From a virus (lineage: Duplodnaviria > Caudoviricetes), in IMG/VR virus record IMGVR_UViG_3300007229_000039, positions 1 through 32,659 of that record: a DNA stretch of 32,659 nucleotides; one strand, given 5' to 3'. The notes below the pieces were generated by a model, which was not told where the DNA came from, did not search any database, and saw nothing but the letters and a program-made list of their open reading frames with translations. The position numbers and the translations under genes were made by a program. Below, in pieces: positions 1 through 25,415 of the stretch. The stretch's first letter is position 1, and every line of letters begins with the position of its first letter.

Positions 1-245
1 TTATAAAAAGACATATAGCCAGCATGGTGCGCCCTATAGGTCGAGCCGTCCACTGTTTCTACATCACGTTTCTTTTTACTGCGAGCTGATATGATGTAAT
101 GGTCTTTGTCTGTTTGGATAAAGTAACGTGCTACGCTGTTTCTATCTTGTCGCACTGTTGCGCCTAGTTTCTCCGCTGCCTTTGCTGCTAGCTTTACTAC
201 TCGACGAGCTGTTTTTGGTGATGCCTTGCTGATTAAGTTTAACAT
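1..245 (-). CDS. Early hypothetical protein, partial (runs off window edge)
   Basis: Not in ORF track. ATG at 245 reads MLNLISKASPKTARRVVKLAAKAAEKLGATVRQDRNSVARYFIQ... with no stop before position 1; same strand as all other genes. Confidence 0.7.
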   Translation of the reverse strand, partial: MLNLISKASPKTARRVVKLAAKAAEKLGATVRQDRNSVARYFIQTDKDHYIISARSKKKRDVETVDGSTYRAHHAGYMSFY

Positions 246-330
246 GGTCTTTAGTCTCTTTGTTGTGTTGCGTTAGTGTTAAGGTAATTATGGTCTAGCT
301 AAAAAAATAAATACAGTGTTAATTGTGGTA

Positions 331-516
331 TTAGTTGGCTTTTCTGATTAATTTAATTTGTTCTGTGGTTCTAGCCTCATAAAAGTTAGTGAGCCATTCA
401 TTGACGTTTACATATTCCCTACCATCAATCGATGTAAAAACAGCTATTACTTTGCCTTTTACTTTATAACCGTCATGGCTAGTGTATTGTACAATGTCAT
501 TTTCTTGAACTTTCAT
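331..516 (-). CDS. Early hypothetical protein (61 aa)
   Basis: AAGGTGA Shine-Dalgarno upstream of ATG; tightly packed behind the previous gene; small beta-rich phage-type protein. Confidence 0.7.
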   Translation of the reverse strand: MKVQENDIVQYTSHDGYKVKGKVIAVFTSIDGREYVNVNEWLTNFYEARTTEQIKLIRKAN

Positions 517-526
517 AATATCACCC

Positions 527-1372
527 TTATAAAGCTAATTGTAATTGATTAAGTGTTGACTGATTGAAAAAGAAGCTATTTCCAGTGTTATCAGTGTGAC
601 GCTCGGCTTTGTTGCTGCCCTTGCGCTTGAGTGTACCTATAGCGTTAACCGCATCTTTAAAACGTACGTCTGTTTCGTCCATATCAATCAAAGGAATATC
701 GCCTATTGATTGTGGTCGCTTCCATTCACCTTTTGTCTCTGCCGTGTTTAATGCTATAACTACCCGTTTACCTGCTTTGATTGCCTTGGCTGTTTGGCTT
801 ATAGTTCGGTCGTTGTTGGCACTGCCTGAAAAGGTTAGATCATAGTTGGCTAGTTGGTTAGTTTTTACCCTATAGTATATTTTAGTGTAGTCGTAGAATT
901 GAACAGCGGGCATTGATTCTATAAGACTATTAAAATCAATATCGCTGGTGCCATTTAATCTTATAGCTAAATCATCACCATACTTTGCATGGTGCTTGCT
1001 AATTTCACGTTTTAACTCACTGTTAAACCGTTCGGCTTCCAATAAATAACAGATGGTGCGCTTGATCTTGGCATTGTCACCAGTTTGCATACCCAACTGT
1101 CCGCTAGACTCCAAACACCCTGCTTTACATCCTGCTAGTTGAGCCGCTGCGCATATTGTGGCTGCCGCTATTGAATCCGCTGGTTTAAGGTATAAGATGC
1201 CAGTGTATACGTTTAACTTTTTACCCTTAACAATCTTAGCGCTGCTATTGACGTTTATAAGTGGTGTATTACTACTTGTAAGGTACTGCCAGTTATTGAC
1301 TGCCCACTGTTTCGCCAAAGGTGTTAGCTTATCGCTGTTTAATACTTCTAATCGAGTCGCTTGTAATTTCAT
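527..1372 (-). CDS. GP88-like phage protein with Cys cluster (possible Fe-S / radical-SAM-like fold)
   Basis: 281 aa; CAAAQLAGCKAGC (CX7CX3C), IRLNGTSDI, QFYDYTK and YDLTFS motifs resemble the phage 'gene 88' family as I recall it. Confidence 0.65.
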   Translation of the reverse strand: MKLQATRLEVLNSDKLTPLAKQWAVNNWQYLTSSNTPLINVNSSAKIVKGKKLNVYTGILYLKPADSIAAATICAAAQLAGCKAGCLESSGQLGMQTGDNAKIKRTICYLLEAERFNSELKREISKHHAKYGDDLAIRLNGTSDIDFNSLIESMPAVQFYDYTKIYYRVKTNQLANYDLTFSGSANNDRTISQTAKAIKAGKRVVIALNTAETKGEWKRPQSIGDIPLIDMDETDVRFKDAVNAIGTLKRKGSNKAERHTDNTGNSFFFNQSTLNQLQLAL

Positions 1373-1420
1373 GGTGGTAGTCTCAAAAGTGGCAAGCGTT
1401 AATCGCTCGACTTGTTAACA

Positions 1421-1448
1421 AGTGTACACGGTCTATAGGATAGTGCAA
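1421..1448 (-). promoter_or_regulatory. Candidate host sigma70 early promoter
   Basis: Minus strand TTGCAC-16 nt-TACACT, about 50 nt upstream of the first early gene, where T7-like phages place host-RNAP promoters. Confidence 0.45.
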
Positions 1449-1514
1449 GTGTTTGAAGTGTTAATAGTTGGCATTAAATGAAAAAACAGATAGAGACAAA
1501 GAGAGACACATGAT

Positions 1515-1718
1515 AATGAGAATCATTCGCATTAACGACAAAGATACCATAGAATCTTAATGATAATCATTCGCATTAACTTGGCATCTGATTATCAATC
1601 TGGTGTCCACCTATATAGGAACAAGAATCATTCGCATTTGTGTCCCTTAGCGTGTCCTAAAAGATGTTAATGAGAATCATTCGCATTTGCGTGACAGTGA
1701 ATGAGAATCATTCGCATT
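1515..1718. promoter_or_regulatory. Array of five Fur-box-like 19-bp imperfect palindromes
   Basis: AATGAGAATCATTCGCATT at 1515-1533, 1669-1687 and 1700-1718; AATGATAATCATTCGCATT at 1559-1577; AACAAGAATCATTCGCATT at 1620-1638. 1512-1530 matches the classical Fur box GATAATGATAATCATTATC at 16/19. Confidence 0.75.
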
Positions 1719-1724
1719 GAGGGC

Positions 1725-1772
1725 ATGGGGGAATACTGCCATCTCGTATATCGATATACCACCTCAGATTTT
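1725..1772 (-). other. Predicted genome terminus / start of direct terminal repeat (about 1756)
   Basis: Minus strand AAAATCTGAG-29 nt-TTCCCCCAT, resembling the sequence around the start of the T7 terminal repeat; lies between the terminase end of the genome and the early genes. Confidence 0.55.
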
Positions 1773-2069
1773 TGCTTCAAAATGAGGCTAATCCATGTGT
1801 ACACTAAAGGCTACTTCATGAACACTAGCGGGAGCTATGTCGATACTTAACGTGAGTTTTTCGTGACAAAAACACGACACTTTCCCTAAGATTTCTGTCA
1901 AAAGTAGGGGGTGTTTGGGAGCTATTATGGTGAAAAGAGGGGGATGATTTAGTCCATCCCCAAGACTCCCTGAGAAACCCAATGATTACAGTAGGGAGTT
2001 TAACGAAATACTTAGGTTTCTAAGGGAAGTACGGGATCACCTCCTAGATAGGTGTGTGGTGGAAGTATG

Positions 2070-2145
2070 CTAAGATATTCTACAGGCTCCTAAGAACACT
2101 TAAGGAATCCTACAGGCTCCTAAGATACCTAAAGATATATAAGAG
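2070..2145. repeat. Short CTAAG/CTACAG repeats with about 10-bp periodicity near the right genome end
   Basis: CTACAGGCTCCTAAGA at 2080-2095 and 2110-2125; TAAG/TACAG units begin at 2071, 2081, 2091, 2101, 2111 and 2121; reminiscent of T7 CCTAAAG end repeats. Confidence 0.6.
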
Positions 2146-2196
2146 TTACTACTCTATATACTATAGTATATCAAAGGGGGCGGGGGGAGCTTCTTC

Positions 2197-2217
2197 CTAA
2201 TAGGGGAACCTTCGAGA
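2197..2217 (-). promoter_or_regulatory. Putative phage RNA polymerase promoter (phiOR-like, right end)
   Basis: Minus strand TCTCGAAGGTTCCCCTATTAG, identical 21-mer at 27397-27417; T7/SP6-like ...CTAT(T)AG end; both copies are intergenic. Confidence 0.75.
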
Positions 2218-2228
2218 CTTGTTAGTAG

Positions 2229-2241
2229 TATCAAGCACTTA
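2229..2241 (+). promoter_or_regulatory. IHF consensus site upstream of phage promoter
   Basis: TATCAAGCACTTA = WATCAANNNNTTR; same offset from the promoter as the site at 27429. Confidence 0.6.
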
Positions 2242-2511
2242 CACAGCCGACAGGCTGGGGGTTAATTCCTCTACTTTTATCACCCAAGACTGAGGAATAG
2301 CGATGTACGCACTACCCTCTTCTAGCTCATTATCCTCAGTTACTATTCTAGATCTCATGATAATGCACTTATCAGGGTCATTGTGGACTAGCCACCCTAC
2401 TTCCTGACAGGTAGCTGGTTCATGATCTAATATAGTCTCCACATCTGTCCATGTACCATCTGAATCTATGGCATCCTTCCATGTTAGTCTTACCATTGGT
2501 ACGTCTGTCAT
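2239..2511 (-). CDS. Conserved hypothetical phage protein
   Basis: MVRLTWKDA...W...VGWL...IP pattern of a common small phage family; ATG at 2511 overlaps the terminase stop (ATGA); the ORF track starts it at 2517. Confidence 0.75.
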   Translation of the reverse strand: MTDVPMVRLTWKDAIDSDGTWTDVETILDHEPATCQEVGWLVHNDPDKCIIMRSRIVTEDNELEEGSAYIAIPQSWVIKVEELTPSLSAV

Positions 2512-4181
2512 ATCCATGTATTAGCCCTTTGTGATGATGATTTAAGATTAAAGCCATTAACAAACTTATCTAGCTCATTCATGAGTACTTGTTCTTTACG
2601 CTCTCTCATTTCTGTGTCAACATCTGCTGCCATCTGTTCTACCCAATATGCTACACCCATTGCCAGAGCATCTAACCTATCGTCATGTGCTAAGGAGCCT
2701 CGTTCTTTTGTTACACGAGTCAGTTGGTATGTAAGCATGTATTTCTGAGCTTTCTCAGTTGGGTGGTGTTGGACACTATCAAAGTCTTGTTGAATGACCT
2801 TTGGATCGATGATCAACTTGTGCTGGTTCATAACTGGCTCAAGTGTATCAATGATACGCAGCTCTTTCTGCTTGCTGTGTCGCACCTCTTCAGTTGTAAC
2901 AGGGTATATCTTCTTTAGTATAGGTTTAATCAGTTCTGTAAACATTCCGTCACCGAAGTTACTCTCTATGAGGAGCATGTTTACTTTATGGTCTTTAGCT
3001 ATGTGAGCCAGTCTAGTTAGTGTCTGCTCACTATAACCACCCTTAATACCTCCGCAAGCGGCGACATACAAGTAACCATTAAGCATCTTAACGACTGCAT
3101 AGGCTGTTTCATCCTGACCTCTACCAGATGGATCTATTACTAGCACTGAGCCGTCATAGTCCACGTAGGAGCCAAGGAGAGCCTCTGGAGCGAAGAACTT
3201 GTCACCACTAAGGCCAACATTAGGGAGATCCTTAACCTCCTTCATAACGCCATACACGAGCTTCTCGGGTGCCTTGTCTTTATCGATAGACATAACCATA
3301 AGATCTGAGAGCTTCAGAGGGTATCTGTCGGTGTCCGATAGGCTTGTATCGAGCATAAATTGTAGTGCAAAACCTGATCTACCGTAAGATAACTCACGCT
3401 CAAGTAGGTCATCATCATCAAATCGCTTAGGATCTACTGGTTGGCCGTCTATGGGATTTGCTGCTTCACGCATAGCTTTCCACATCATAGGGGCTAAACG
3501 CTCACCATAGGCTTTCTCGGCGTACTCAATGGAAGGATAGCGAGCTGTCCAGACTCTCATCTGGTATCCACGCTCTGTGAGTGTATTATAAAGACTCATT
3601 TCGCACTGTGGTGTTCCCAGATAGAGGATCTTCCCTTCTGGTTTGAGTACAGCGTCAAATTCCTTAACAGCTTCACCTAATTTCTCTCTCATCATCTGAG
3701 TCATAGAGTTATTAGGTACTTCGATGTCATCTGCAATGATAATGTCTGCCCGACTGCCTGTGAGCTGACCAGTAATACCGACTGATTTAACAGAAGGACT
3801 ACCACTAGCCAGCGCAGGTCTTACGTCAAACGCAATCTTACTCCACCGTTGCTCACTTGTTGCTATGAGATGTTGGCACATGGGGAGTTCTAAGATCAGA
3901 CGTTGAGTGAATGTGGAAAAATCATCAGCTCTCTGTTTAGAGGCCGACACAACCATGAACTTCTTTTGTGGATCTAGAAGTAATTGGTGTACCACGAATG
4001 CAGCAGTGATGTATGACTTACCTACACCCCGAAAAGCCTCGATGATTGATCTACGAGGACAGTTTTGGATGAACTCAGCCATGTCATATTGAACTGGAGT
4101 TGGATCAGGCAGGTTAAGGTGCTTCCAAACGATATACATGAAGTTACGGAAGTCTTTTAACTGCTCTGGCATCTTATCCAT
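2508..4181 (-). CDS. terL: Terminase large subunit (T7 gp19-like)
   Basis: AFRGVGKS Walker A, GSRADIIIADDIE Walker B, IDPSGRGQDET and HDDRLDALA nuclease motifs. Confidence 0.97.
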   Translation of the reverse strand: MDKMPEQLKDFRNFMYIVWKHLNLPDPTPVQYDMAEFIQNCPRRSIIEAFRGVGKSYITAAFVVHQLLLDPQKKFMVVSASKQRADDFSTFTQRLILELPMCQHLIATSEQRWSKIAFDVRPALASGSPSVKSVGITGQLTGSRADIIIADDIEVPNNSMTQMMREKLGEAVKEFDAVLKPEGKILYLGTPQCEMSLYNTLTERGYQMRVWTARYPSIEYAEKAYGERLAPMMWKAMREAANPIDGQPVDPKRFDDDDLLERELSYGRSGFALQFMLDTSLSDTDRYPLKLSDLMVMSIDKDKAPEKLVYGVMKEVKDLPNVGLSGDKFFAPEALLGSYVDYDGSVLVIDPSGRGQDETAYAVVKMLNGYLYVAACGGIKGGYSEQTLTRLAHIAKDHKVNMLLIESNFGDGMFTELIKPILKKIYPVTTEEVRHSKQKELRIIDTLEPVMNQHKLIIDPKVIQQDFDSVQHHPTEKAQKYMLTYQLTRVTKERGSLAHDDRLDALAMGVAYWVEQMAADVDTEMRERKEQVLMNELDKFVNGFNLKSSSQRANTWI

Positions 4182-4395
4182 TACGGCTCCTGTTACGCTT
4201 CACACTGGAGATGCGAAGGTTTGATCTACTGTTATTATTAGGGTTACGATCTTTGTGATCTATGTCTTTACCTTTGATAGCCGCAGCTCCCACAGTCTTC
4301 TTAATTTTAAGTCTGGCTTTATTACGGGATGATCTACGTGCTATCTGTTCTGGCTTACCTTGGTAGTTGGCGTATTCTTTTTTATAGTCACGCAT
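4174..4395 (-). CDS. Small HNH-type endonuclease
   Basis: DIDHKDRNPNNNSRSNLR...N HNH signature; very basic; between the two terminase subunits. Confidence 0.8.
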   Translation of the reverse strand: MRDYKKEYANYQGKPEQIARRSSRNKARLKIKKTVGAAAIKGKDIDHKDRNPNNNSRSNLRISSVKRNRSRNG

Positions 4396-4598
4396 TAATG
4401 AGTTGCCTCTTCAAAAGGTAGTGCTGTCAATAAGCTTGCCATAGGAGACTCAGCAGTAACTATATCGTTACTCGCTCCATTGTCTTTGAGAAACTTTACG
4501 GCAACTGATAACTCCGCTGGCGTAGCTTCTCCTGATTTGACTCTTGCTAATAATTCTTTAGTCACACCTTCGTGCAACTCGCTTAGTAAATCTTTCAT
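4395..4598 (-). CDS. terS: Terminase small subunit (T7 gp18-like)
   Basis: LSELH...LLARVKSGEATPAELSVAVKFLKDNG...LPF pattern and position. Confidence 0.88.
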   Translation of the reverse strand: MKDLLSELHEGVTKELLARVKSGEATPAELSVAVKFLKDNGASNDIVTAESPMASLLTALPFEEATH

Positions 4599-5224: not shown

Positions 5225-5809
5225 TTATGCTATTAATTTATAAGCCCCAAAAGAAGCTGGGTTGTTCTGTAAACTAGCATCTCCATAAATAGGAACACCT
5301 GAAACACTGGTAAAAGCGTAAAGCTCAACTGTATCTGTTGCAGATAAACTTAAAGTTGTATTAATTGTTACTTCTTGATACCCAGATACATCTATGTTTT
5401 CATCAAAAGGCGACCGAGTAAAAACTCTTGAGCCATTTACATAGATAGCTAAAGTTGGTCTTTTTACTGTTGCATTATTAAACATAGCCGTCCCATAGAT
5501 ATAATAAAGACCGCCTTCATTTGCTGGTACTGTAAAAGTACCTCCTGTATAAGCACTGTTACTATCGTATGCTTCTGTGTTAGGAGAAATTTTAGTCCAA
5601 GTAGAAGTTGATAAAGCACTTGTTGAAGAGCTTAAAGTTGCTCTAAAATTAGGAGTATTAGTCCCACCAGCAGCTAAGTTAGTCAGTGCCGACCCATTAA
5701 GAGCTGGTAGATTTCCTGAAAGTTTAGTTGCGTCTAACGTAGAGGCGCTCGTAAGCACCCCTGTTGAATCGAATGGTACATAATCTGCTAAGGTTCTTGC
5801 CTTAGTCAT
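5225..5809 (-). CDS. C1q-like domain virion fibre / adhesin protein
   Basis: MTKARTLAD start, LPALNGSALTNL linker, FRATLS...WTKI...YD...FTVP...GLYYIY...LSATDTVELY...FGAYKL, a C1q-type jelly-roll pattern. Confidence 0.7.
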   Translation of the reverse strand: MTKARTLADYVPFDSTGVLTSASTLDATKLSGNLPALNGSALTNLAAGGTNTPNFRATLSSSTSALSTSTWTKISPNTEAYDSNSAYTGGTFTVPANEGGLYYIYGTAMFNNATVKRPTLAIYVNGSRVFTRSPFDENIDVSGYQEVTINTTLSLSATDTVELYAFTSVSGVPIYGDASLQNNPASFGAYKLIA

Positions 5810-7428: not shown

Positions 7429-10400
7429 ATGTTTAACCCCTGTACTGTTATATTTGCGTTGTTAATGCCACGACCTATAGCTGTGTCTGCTTCTACATCA
7501 TTAAAAAGACCGAAAAGCCATACAGTATAATCTTTATTGCCTTCTAATGTTGTTAAGTTTGATAGGCTATAATTCTGTTGTCCATCACCAATAGTTTTAG
7601 TCCCCACTGTGAACATATAATCAGCAGGATTGCTAGAACCAAAATTAGTCACATCGTCCGTTTGGACGCAAACTAACGCAAAACCAGTAGTAGAGTCGGC
7701 ATCAAAATTACCCACACTATTAAACTCACTCTTTATATTAAAAGCCTTAGTACCAGAAAAGTTATAAGTCTTGAAAGTGTGTGCTAATAAAGGAGCGCCA
7801 CCCATAACAGCACCAACTATAGTAGTAGGTGTAGTAACTGGGTTACTAGGAACTGCAATAGTTTGTGACTGCATGTATTCAATGTAAGAAGCATTAGGGC
7901 CAGAAGCAACAACATCTGCTAAGTCAGGATACATAGGCACATACGTTATATTTGTAAAAACAGTACCACCTTCTATCTCTGTTTTAGCTATATGGTTGGG
8001 TATTTGATCAATAAAGTTACTTACTGATACTCCACTTGAGTCAGGTAATCCTATAGACACACCTGAGACACCATCGTTTATACCAACAGAACCCTGATAA
8101 GCTTTACCGGCTACATCGAGCGTGTTCACCTTAATTATGTTAGCATTAATAGTATCTACAGTCATTGAGGATGTGCTTATAGAACCAGCAAGTATTTTAT
8201 TGCCTGTAATACTACCATCAACTACTAAACCGCCATCTATGTATAAGACAACAGTTTGATCAAATATCCCAATACCTGCCTCATTGACACTGCCACATAT
8301 TTTAGTCACTAAGTTAGTTCTGTTATCTATTTGTGATAACGTAACTACATCACCTATAACAGGGAGTCTCTTTGCTCTAGCTTGTATAAGATTAGTTGCT
8401 TGTTGATTAGTAAAAGAAGTGGTTGCCATATTACCAGAGAACTGACCAGCACCGTTAGTACCGTGTGTACCGTTAGATCCGTTTGCACCTGAGATCTGAA
8501 TAGGGTTTCCCCATGAACCTTCTGAGGTATTACGTCCAAATCTTTGTACCATCCAATTAACACTGGCAGATGGTTGTTTAGTCCAACCACCATTTGTAGC
8601 CACACCGTTTCCAAACCAAGCATTGCTAGGTTTAGTGGGTGTTACTGCAATATTATTATAGTTGTATGCTACATAAACATTTATACCATCAACACCATCA
8701 ACACCATCAGCGCCATTAGTACCGTTAGTACCAGACTCAACCATGAGTTCCCAAGCTTGTCCTACAGCGTCATAAATTCTTACTTGACCTGTAAAAGCAC
8801 CACCTGTGTCTTTGTAAGCCCAGTTAGCTGCCGCCATGTGATTAGTAGTACCATTTGAATATGTAGGAAGTTCTGGTGGCAAGGCTAGTTCACCTTTCCA
8901 GACCATACCAGCGACACCATCAGTACCGCTGTCTCCGTCTGCTGCTACTTGGTAATACGCAGTATCTTGGTAGATATAGCTTCTTTTAGCGCCTACATCG
9001 TAATAAGCCATACCATCAGCTAGAGGAGTGTTTGCAGTCACAAAAGTAGCTCGATCAGCGTACTCACCTTTCCAGTCTATAGTTGTACCATCAGCACCTT
9101 TAACTAATTGCCATGTATAAACAGCGTAGTCTGTTGGATCGGGAGGTATAATACCCGCAGCTACAGTTTGAACGTAAATACCTAAGTAATTTCTTCCATT
9201 TGGAAGATCAACACTAAAGTCTGATACTACACCACCAAGAAAATTAGCGTAAGCGTAATGAAGAAAAGTCCGAGCACCCTCAGGGCCGGTAGCTCCGTCA
9301 GCACCATCCGCACCAGCAGCTCCATCAACACCATCAGCGCCATTAGTACCATTAGTACCATTAGCGCCATTAACGCCGTTTGCGCCATCAACTCCAGCAT
9401 CACCTTTGACTTGACCTACATTAGTAAAATCATTAACGTCTATAGGGGCTGTTGTGCTTGTACAAACATATAAATCACCGTCAATTATATAACCATCCCC
9501 TAAAGTCACAGACGACAAGCTACTCAGAGCAGCCTCGTTCGCTAAAGTACCTAATATACTTACAGATGTGCCATGAGCGCCATCAATACCGTTTGTACCA
9601 TTAGTACCGTTTGTACCATTAGTACCGTCTGCACCCGCAGGGCCGGTAGAACCACCTACGCCATTTATACCATTAGTACCATTAGTACCATGAGTACCAG
9701 CAGCGCCAGAATCACCTTGTCGGTAGAATAATTTAGGTAAAGACCACCCGTTGTTTGACCAAACACCGTTAACTTCAACGTACCTAGTTGTAGATACCCA
9801 CTCAATATCTAGTAAAGAAGCTGTGGGTGAGTCATACCAACTTGTAGGGAAAGTCTCAGAAGTACCATCAAACGTGCCGCCTGTAGGAGTTAAAGGACGT
9901 GAACCAGCCGTGGTAAAGATAAAACTTTTGAAAGCCCCTGTGTCGCCATCAAGGTAATCAACACCCTTTACTGGAGGCTCTCCATCTACACCGTCCGAAA
10001 ATGTAACAACGTCACCAGCTCCGTTATCAATAGTGTAAGTACCATTACCGTTATCAGTTATTGTGGGGATAGGTACAGAACCGTCATTACCATCAGCCAC
10101 TACAATAGAAACATTGGTTGAAGAATCAGTGATAATATAAGAGCCATCATCTTGTAGCGTTAATGCAATATTACCCCCACCGCCACCGCCAATTACAGTA
10201 GTAGTACCATCAATTATAGTAGTATTAGTGCCGCCTGTGTTATTAATGAGATTAACTACAACCTCTACTACATCGCCAGCATTTAAAGTTGCAAAGTAAA
10301 TACGATTGTTTGTAAGATCAACAAAGTAATCATCAGCACCTACGATAGCCACCACATTTATTTTAGTTTCCGCACGTACTAGCTTAACACCGTTTAGAAA

Positions 10401-24440: not shown

Positions 24441-25415
24441 TTAAGCTTTTTTAGTAGTGTACTTGGCACCACGCCAGTCAAAGATTTTTTCACCTTTTTT
24501 CGTAGCGGCTTTAAATGCTTTGTTAAACTCATTCTTCCTGTCTTTTACAAGAAGGTCAGCCTCCAAGTTACGCCTAGTTTTAAAATCATCTCCAAAGTTT
24601 TTAAGGTTCTTCTCGGCTTTACCCCATTCACCTTTTGTAACTTGCTTCCAATAATTCTTAGGCCATTTATTTTTTTCTTTGTTTGTACCGTATTGGAAAA
24701 ACACGGAGGCAACGGCTGTCTGTTGCTCTGCGGTTAAGTCTACAAACTTAGTTAAGGACTCTGCATCAAACGCTTCAATAAGCTTATCTAGTAATTTACC
24801 TTTAATAGCTGTATTAACTTCATCTACTTGATCTGATGTTAAAGTAAGAGGGTTCTTGGCTAAGTAGTCAGTCGCCGCTTTGTTCTTTAAACCAAAGTAG
24901 CCGTTAAGAGTTGTTACAAGAGTCTCAGATACACCTGCACTTTTAAACTCAGCAGCAGACCACTGACCTAAATCTATACCCATGCCTATTGTGTTACCTG
25001 ATTTACCTATAACTTCCTTAACGCCTTTAGCGTTTGTCTCTTGGGGTACATACATTGAAAGTTTATTACCTTCTCGTGCTTTAATAAAACCCCAATCAAC
25101 AGCGTGTACTTTCTCTTCAACAACTTCCTCTTCTACACCATTCCACTTATTATTAAGAGCAGTGTATTGCTCTTGTGGTGTTGATGTAGCGTAAGCAGGG
25201 TTTGAGGTTATAAGAATCTTAGAGTTAGCCATAAAGTTAGAAGCAGCTTTGGCTTCAAGAACATCTCTAGGGATGTCCGTAGACAACCCCGATCCATGTT
25301 TAATTCTCTCTGACTCAATCCAACTTTTGTTAGAGGGTACTTCTGCATCGATGTACTCCATAGGATCTTTGTCAGCTAAATCGTTATAGAATAGTTGCTC
25401 TGCTGATGTTGACAT
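24441..25415 (-). CDS. Pesticin-like (T4-lysozyme fold) muramidase domain protein
   Basis: VDWGFIKAREG...YVP...SGNTIGMGIDLGQ...QQTAVASVFFQYG...W...LKNFGD...TRRNLEADLL matches pesticin C-terminal-like lysozymes. Confidence 0.8.
   Translation of the reverse strand: MSTSAEQLFYNDLADKDPMEYIDAEVPSNKSWIESERIKHGSGLSTDIPRDVLEAKAASNFMANSKILITSNPAYATSTPQEQYTALNNKWNGVEEEVVEEKVHAVDWGFIKAREGNKLSMYVPQETNAKGVKEVIGKSGNTIGMGIDLGQWSAAEFKSAGVSETLVTTLNGYFGLKNKAATDYLAKNPLTLTSDQVDEVNTAIKGKLLDKLIEAFDAESLTKFVDLTAEQQTAVASVFFQYGTNKEKNKWPKNYWKQVTKGEWGKAEKNLKNFGDDFKTRRNLEADLLVKDRKNEFNKAFKAATKKGEKIFDWRGAKYTTKKA

Follow-up and report, generated by a model that had tools for sequence, protein, structure and literature searches.

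A T7-like phage with probable Fur operators in its predicted terminal repeat, and relatives with LexA-like boxes in the same slots

One end of a T7-like phage genome carries five 19-bp boxes that form a real array and, judged from sequence, probably bind the host repressor Fur. All five lie inside a direct terminal repeat whose position was predicted from conserved motifs, and in related phages LexA-like boxes occupy the same slots. The arrangement would represent a variant of host-regulator co-option at phage ends. To our knowledge, T7-like terminal repeats have been treated as purely phage-run signals for packaging and replication. We propose, with a probability of roughly 40%, that the host repressors work in cis, clamping the genome end until stress releases them.

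The window, meaning the whole 32,659-bp contig that was analysed, has its phage genes on the minus strand. PHROGs profile matches identified T7-type large and small terminases, portal, capsid, tail tubes, exonuclease, DNA polymerase and a ribonucleotide reductase, the last placed by Pfam in class II (B12-type). The nearest named terminases, at about 60% identity, belong to Roseobacter and other Autographiviridae phages. The contig is 76% complete and lacks the RNA polymerase region; a T7-type RNA polymerase is present in the records of three of five relatives, and in the relative L365. Between the portal and scaffold genes, a 324-aa ORF (24441–25415) carries a pesticin-type phage-lysozyme domain (PF16754, E = 3e-35). 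The array sits between a late ORF (2239–2517) and the first early ORF (527–1372), both on the minus strand, and only short ORFs of 45–64 aa are found in 1373–2238. The features of this region are as follows.

527–1372, minus strand: first early ORF, 281 aa, phrog_1617 / Pfam GP88 by profile matches, function unknown
1421–1448, minus strand: candidate first early promoter for host polymerase, TTGCAC-16-TACACT, with the −35 conserved in relatives L004, L032 and L035
1485–1491, minus strand: ATCTGTT, like the T7 concatemer-junction pause, whose counterpart stands at T7 base 161, right after the 160-bp repeat
1492–1756, minus strand: predicted direct terminal repeat, 265 bp, landmarks in register with T7 and HTVC019P
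1515–1533, no strand: Fur-like box at repeat position 224, weak partner at 1509–1527; LexA-like box at 220–227 in relatives L004, L041 and L049
1559–1577, no strand: Fur-like box at repeat position 180, weak partner at 1553–1571; LexA-like box at 181–188 in L041, L045 and L049
1588–1601, minus strand: conserved mid-repeat element, kept in relatives that have no operators; candidate phage-protein site
1620–1638, no strand: degenerate Fur-like box (two mismatches) at repeat position 119; no box here in the close relative L004
1669–1687, no strand: Fur-like box at repeat position 70; LexA-like box there in L053
1700–1718, no strand: Fur-like box at repeat position 39; LexA-like box there in L045
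1757–1773, minus strand: conserved motif just outside the left boundary of the repeat, like the motif directly before the T7 and HTVC019P repeats
2071–2130, no strand: short direct repeats (family D4, repeat search) in the non-coding DNA before the terminal repeat
2508–4181, minus strand: T7-type large terminase by homology and profile matches, followed by the 92-aa ORF 2239–2517; marks the late genome end

The five 19-mers start at 1515, 1559, 1620, 1669 and 1700, with spacings of 44, 61, 49 and 31 bp. An earlier note on this DNA had described them as five copies of one pattern. Five were indeed found, of which three are identical (1515, 1669 and 1700) and the copy at 1559 is the T variant, but the copy at 1620 opens with AACAAG and deviates from that pattern by two mismatches. 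When scored with a degenerate palindrome written from the note's consensus, four copies had no mismatch and one had two, and no further site with up to two mismatches was found elsewhere in the 32,659-bp contig. Chance matches at up to three mismatches averaged 0.01, and the observed count was reached in 0 of 100 shuffles. Two boxes have weak partner sites (three mismatches) staggered by 6 bp. A contig from run X2 spans 215–3126 with five differences, and overlapping contigs from run X8, which belongs to another study, together cover all five boxes; because these contigs rebuild the region, the array is not an assembly artefact. Run X3 matches 1300–2300 without a difference, but may be the run from which the record was made. 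The best sequence-carrying samples were labelled freshwater or aquatic, while weaker ones were estuarine or marine. Helical phasing of the array was rejected, since only the first pair of boxes, 31 bp apart, is separated by about three helical turns.

The identification of the boxes with Fur is well supported by the context of the same sequence in bacteria. A scan of GTDB genomes for the exact 19-mer gave at least 120 loci of about 190, of which the 80 with long flanks were used and their 144 neighbouring ORFs scanned for families; the 40 of 120 with short flanks were left out of the family scan. Genes of iron-uptake or iron-storage type stood beside the 19-mer at 32 of the 80 listed loci, a raw count taken without a matched control motif. 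These comprised 18 TonB-dependent receptors (7 of them at related sphingomonad loci), 7 solute-binding/ABC genes with a presumed role in iron transport, 2 FeoB genes, and one each of an Fe2+ transport protein, a ferritin-like protein, ChaN, Fur and an ECF sigma factor. Zinc-type genes were found at 6 of the 80 listed loci, all outside the Proteobacteria. The E. coli znuA–znuC spacer contains no match to the 19-mer under 5 mismatches, and the consensus words of Irr and PerR differ from the box. Staggered pairs with a 6-bp offset are strong in relatives L041, L042 and L049 and in phage HTVC025P, and such sites correspond to two bound Fur dimers according to the available part of Chen et al. (2007, PMC2189734). 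The five repeats are thus predicted, as the earlier note had proposed, to be probable host Fur operators. That note had also pointed to an invariant G, seemingly foreign to the Fur consensus, as an opening for a phage protein; this argument falls away, because the same 19-mer, G included, is found ahead of iron genes in bacteria and the G is therefore normal. Three marine gammaproteobacterial genomes (L093, L134 and L163) also have the exact 19-mer about 400 bp before a nitrile hydratase alpha gene.

The position of the boxes relative to strong promoter matches differs from that of bacterial Fur sites. With the candidate −35 at 1448, the nearest box is 67 bp upstream, as had been stated earlier, and no box in the window overlaps the −35 or −10. 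A scan with the promoter consensus found 10 sites where 7.1 were expected, and the candidate promoter was not among them. Promoter matches of at least 10 of 12 bases overlapped 0 of 19 repeat boxes versus 34 of 117 bacterial boxes (P = 0.004); at 9 of 12 bases there was no difference (10 of 19 versus 69 of 117).

The terminal repeat was placed by landmarks. In the T7 record, the motif AAAAATCTGAG precedes the 160-bp repeat, TTCCCCC stands at position 24 and ATCTGTT follows the repeat; the last is given as the concatemer-junction class II pause word in the accessible text of PMC11617373. The 162-bp repeat of HTVC019P begins directly after a like motif and again has TTCCCCC at position 24. The window has the boundary motif at 1773–1757, TTCCCCC at position 24 and ATCTGTT at 1491–1485, and these shared landmarks lead to a predicted repeat of 265 bp running from 1756 to 1492. 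The left edge could be 12 bp further in and the right edge 4 bp further out; the annotated repeat of LUZ100 begins 12 nt later than the landmark rule would place it. Contig breaks in the assembly near 1494 and 1830 were uninterpretable as genome ends. The boxes would then occupy positions 39–242 of the repeat, in agreement with the estimate of about 40–240 bp inside the left end made earlier, and the box at 1515–1533 would lie 23 bp from the right boundary. Whereas the note had suggested that some boxes might fall within the repeat, on this placement all five do, and the virion DNA would therefore have them at each end.

Related phage termini were compared next to the window. Eighty terminase loci were collected, 70 of which had the gene's end (10 were dropped), making 71 with the window. 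The boundary motif was present in 51 of the 71, and most of the 20 without it reflect a contig end or a diverged motif. Of the resulting 34 repeat types, 8 without a right boundary were dropped and 26 had both. LexA-like boxes were called from the LexA consensus, with up to 6 mismatches and fixed CTG and CAG. The 26 repeats (5,512 bp) contained 16 Fur-like and 12 LexA-like boxes, and the non-coding DNA before them contained none in 8,431 bp, so that the repeat accounts for 28 of 28 junction operators (nominal P = 5e-12, kinship ignored). Four types have Fur-like boxes only, 3 have LexA-like boxes only, 4 have both and 15 have neither. The boxes change identity in place. At the slots near positions 39 and 70, which are joined by a conserved linker, the window has Fur–Fur, L053 has Fur–LexA and L045 has LexA–Fur; at the slots near 180 and 225 the window has Fur–Fur, L004 has Fur–LexA and L041 has LexA–LexA. 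In eight repeat types the first box begins 33–47 bp inside the left end. Apart from the boxes, the repeats have a skeleton of motifs that is kept whether or not operators are present, and this skeleton is a better candidate for phage-protein sites than the boxes are. In some relatives a single operator lies just downstream of the first early promoter, which is a repressing position (a Fur-like box in L053, a LexA-like box in L043; none in the window).

This comparison both confirms and limits what had been claimed. The array does recur, as Fur-like boxes, in some related termini, but others have LexA-like boxes in the same slots and 15 of the 26 types have neither. The proposal of an iron-sensing system accordingly keeps its Fur-like boxes and is too narrow as iron-specific, because relatives put LexA-type boxes in the same slots. 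What matters is likely to be that a repressor sits at the end, and not iron alone. With slots that accept predicted operators of either of two global repressors of the host, these repeats form a natural substitution series, which narrows the mechanism. The module of Fur and LexA boxes appears to be accessory, and would tune timing while being dispensable for packaging.

Several relatives carry additional elements around this junction. A second pair of Fur-like boxes stands in the early region of L443 (6954–7023) and L053 (about 5660–5720), about 1.7–2.4 kb in, and behind it comes a repeated ATGATAGTATTTT motif, which may belong to a promoter. Further palindromes or repeated words lie between the repeat and the first gene in L015, L018, L073 and L448, and also in L043, L046 and L082; they include GTGAC...GTCAC, CCGAACCGTTCGGG occurring twice, and a 19-mer occurring three times in L082, and may be sites for further regulators. 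In L369, a phage with a 45% identical homolog of the first early gene, the non-coding DNA ahead of a good early promoter match contains at least seven LexA-like boxes spaced about 18–35 bp apart (9259–9435).

Boxes of the same type were found in other phages. Roseobacter phage CRP-143 has three (42251–42390) and Pelagibacter phage HTVC025P has a staggered pair, in both cases at the same junction and as the only sites in the genome. Nine further cultured or fosmid Autographiviridae had no Fur box at the junction (T7, HTVC019P, HTVC120P, LUZ100, CRP-114, CRP-227, Lo5R7ANS, DU_RP_I and MedDCM-OCT-S45-C18). Of the ten roseophages in the accessible text of PMC11092137, CRP-143 alone has a class I (iron-dependent) ribonucleotide reductase, and it is the sole member of its group without an integrase; CRP-114 and CRP-227 are its class II relatives. 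Among viral contigs, about 200 stretches had two boxes within 37 bp, versus 0 for a permuted palindrome. Eighty such loci with flanks formed 51 clusters, one of which is the T5 injection-stop region, and a terminase gene lay within 1.5 kb of 15 and within 4 kb of 24 of the 51, figures that have no formal background. When 101 ORFs next to viral box pairs were scanned with PHROGs, no iron gene was named; 15 of the 80 loci had been passed over because they were duplicates or had been classed before. One contig, L257, has fifteen Fur-like boxes in 3995–4558, many at intervals of 40–49 bp, and a terminase gene about 2 kb away. Weak box-pair matches (E about 9) were also seen in Vibrio phage ICP1 (e.g. 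MW794158.1, 755–790), near the start of most records listed. A LexA-like match in Pseudomonas phage PotUPM1 was set aside as unrelated, as it adjoins the cI gene of an ordinary temperate phage.

Two laboratory phages belong to this set. The T5 injection-stop region, inside the terminal repeat, has four Fur-like boxes with staggered partners (9552–9715), a LexA-like box at 9409 and a DnaA box at 9510; the boxes lie 500–670 bp from the right end. Phage lambda has a single Fur-like site (up to three mismatches) in 48.5 kb, at 48450–48468, 34 bp from the right end and adjoining cosQ. Its counterpart in the E. coli Qin prophage lies upstream of nohA (L343, 1392–1410). The palindromes of the T5 region are listed by Davison (bioRxiv 10.1101/866236), whose preprint in its available part has 0 whole-word mentions of Fur or iron. 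This counterpart is the Fur cluster, 233 bp upstream of nohA, that was confirmed by gel shift (Chen et al. 2007, PMC2189734); the available part of that paper does not mention phage or terminase.

The LexA box type found in the relatives is gamma- or betaproteobacterial, and on that basis the host would be a gamma- or betaproteobacterium. A more direct assignment did not succeed: a tRNA-like stretch after the integrase of a relative matches two of five named genomes, both gammaproteobacterial; at one mismatch it was found in 25 of 301 Pseudomonadota genomes, and an exact match in 0 of 301 genomes of one order. In L335, a tRNA-Phe-like 5′ half after the integrase (1342–1378, minus strand) is a probable attachment site, and a MarR-like helix-turn-helix gene (2549–2860) precedes the integrase. 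Capsid and integrase homologs gave one Porticoccaceae and one cyanobacterial bin label, which were too weak to be used for host assignment.

In the clamp that we propose, iron-loaded Fur would bind the predicted boxes and cover the phage DNA at its two ends as it enters, holding the genome end together with the adjoining first early promoter. The bound repressor would slow a first step, either the early transcription that pulls the DNA in or exonuclease-dependent end joining, until released by iron starvation, by DNA damage or by titration as genomes multiply. Fur and LexA both leave DNA under stress, so exchanging one for the other would keep the sign of the response. A role at the genome end is suggested by the strict confinement of the boxes to the repeat, and action in cis by T5, which has the same two motifs in its injection-stop region and degrades host DNA early according to the partly available literature. 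CtrA sites concentrated in terminal repeats regulate phage genes, as described in the accessible part of PMC9437464, and provide by analogy an experimental precedent for cis control.

The evidence for the clamp consists of the exact 19-mer at iron genes, the landmarks in register, the confinement of every junction operator to the repeat, the slot-for-slot exchange and the repressing positions in some relatives. A Fur or LexA gene was absent from the window and from the records of four relatives (0 of 5, one record being complete). Against it stand the window boxes, which neither overlap nor follow the candidate promoter, the lack of strong promoter overlap across all 19 repeat boxes, the boxless majority of repeat types, and the nine other phages with no Fur box at the junction. 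T5 and lambda grow well in iron-rich medium, so any clamp in these phages is not a strong block. Among the three roles that the earlier note had offered for Fur (a gate in cis, an anti-silencer and a decoy), the gate in cis is favoured.

The exchange of two unrelated repressors in the same slots would be explained equally well by a coat that is blind to signals, for which the phage recruits any abundant host dimer that is bound by default (Fur or LexA, and DnaA in T5). Such a coat could hinder exonucleases or defences that sense DNA ends, act as a ratchet on the incoming DNA, or form a roadblock by the terminase cut sites and the junction pause. It accords with the regular placement of the first boxes, with the end-proximal site of lambda, with the terminase genes near viral box clusters, and with the long arrays of L257 and L369. 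RecBCD evicts DNA-bound proteins, however, the single operators behind early promoters in relatives suggest real regulation, and the T5 boxes are 500–670 bp from the right end; long non-coding DNA sits at genome ends anyway, which weakens the terminase proximity. We consider the coat unlikely, though worth serious attention. Somewhat less credence is due to a decoy in trans, in which multiplying boxes would titrate Fur or LexA, derepress host iron-uptake or SOS genes and raise the yield. The high copy number of near-consensus boxes with no strong overlapping promoter would suit a decoy, as would CRP-143, which combines an iron-dependent reductase with three boxes while CRP-114 and CRP-227 have none at the junction. 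But the reductase of the window phage is of the B12 type, and in T5 the early degradation of host DNA, again as partly described, would leave little to derepress. The decoy is weakened because the larger non-coding DNA before the repeat, copied equally often, has no box, and because the same motif pair occurs in T5.

Repression of a prophage or pseudolysogen, with Fur and LexA replacing a phage repressor and silencing an integrated copy until the cell runs short of iron or its DNA is damaged, is very unlikely. L443, L454 and L460 do combine an integrase with Fur and LexA boxes, and L443 has a tRNA-like stretch after its integrase. However, L365, the closest relative in the early region (89% nucleotide identity), reaches its RNA polymerase gene without an integrase, LexA boxes occur without an integrase match in the complete genome G001, an integrase occurs without boxes in L448, CRP-143 has no integrase in the available account, and T5 is virulent. 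A link between boxes and lysogeny was sought and was absent, as the boxes do not track with the integrase (L365, G001 and L448). Fe-Fur displaces H-NS-like silencers at E. coli ftnA, and an upstream array could in the same way activate the first early promoter here. The position of the multi-box array, 67–270 bp upstream of the candidate promoter and not over it, would suit this; the LexA exchange and the promoter-downstream operators of relatives would remain unexplained, and we regard anti-silencing as highly improbable. There is even less reason to think that the repeats bind a phage protein such as the small terminase, or are neutral duplications. Their place at the packaging junction and their freely varying number would be expected of such sites, but relatives with an 83–90% identical large terminase have no boxes, the conserved skeleton of motifs is separate from them, the motif is common to phages with unrelated terminases, and box pairs in viral contigs far outnumber those of a permuted palindrome. 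The boxes are thus neither conserved with the terminase nor specific to the lineage, given the 15 of 26 close types without either motif and the sharing of the motif by unrelated phages.

If the clamp is real, lytic phages would sense both iron and DNA damage with DNA alone, which bears on viral control of iron-limited aquatic microbes. A broader idea, which we advance tentatively and hold to be doubtful, is that unrelated tailed phages (T7-like, T5-like and lambdoid) have converged on a gene-free end device, in which exchangeable Fur/LexA docking slots cap the first-entering end and gate entry, end joining or first transcription by iron or DNA-damage state without a phage protein. If true, it would identify the host factors behind the T5 injection stop and link iron to when aquatic phages lyse their hosts. 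The motifs in T5 and lambda make the idea testable in laboratory E. coli, and CRP-143 and HTVC025P are cultured marine T7-like carriers.

Searches of an open-access paper library found no account of T7-like repeats with arrays of Fur or LexA sites. In their available parts, the CRP-143 paper (PMC11092137) does not mention Fur, iron, LexA or a terminal repeat, and a survey of marine Autographiviridae (PMC12361551) does not mention iron or a terminal repeat. Proteobacterial Fur operators share with the window the exact 19-mer, which precedes genes for TonB receptors, ABC solute-binding proteins, FeoB, ferritin-like proteins and Fur itself, and share with the relatives the 6-bp staggered pairs (available part of Chen et al. 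2007, PMC2189734). Unlike them, the window boxes lie in a phage repeat, 31–61 bp apart, and overlap no strong promoter match. T5 resembles the window in having Fur-like and LexA-like boxes inside a terminal repeat, and differs in its 10-kb repeat and two-step injection. Lambda and Qin have a Fur-type site near a packaging gene or genome end, but it is one box at the cos end and may simply regulate the neighbouring prophage gene.

Another close known system is found in alphaproteobacterial phages, where clusters of CtrA sites in direct terminal repeats and gaps have been interpreted as 'lytic deferment' (Mascolo et al. 2022, PMC9437464, in its accessible part). As in the window, sites for a host regulator are concentrated in the terminal repeat, and they are read there as control in cis by host state. 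The window differs in its regulators, Fur and LexA, in a gene-free 265-bp repeat, in the alternation of two regulators in fixed slots, and in that no regulated promoter is shown here. The same accessible text cites the Spo0A sites of phi29 as co-option of a host regulator and reviews LexA-controlled lytic switches of temperate phages. The latter resemble our relatives in placing host LexA boxes on phage DNA, in some relatives just behind the first early promoter; in temperate phages, as there described, the boxes control antirepressor or lytic promoters, whereas here they lie mostly in the terminal repeat and occur also without an integrase match. CtrA sites in phage terminal repeats and the co-option of LexA and Spo0A are therefore already known, to the extent of that account. 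What is new is the T7-like family in which the boxes occur, the assignment of the repeat boundaries, and the slot-for-slot exchange of Fur and LexA boxes.
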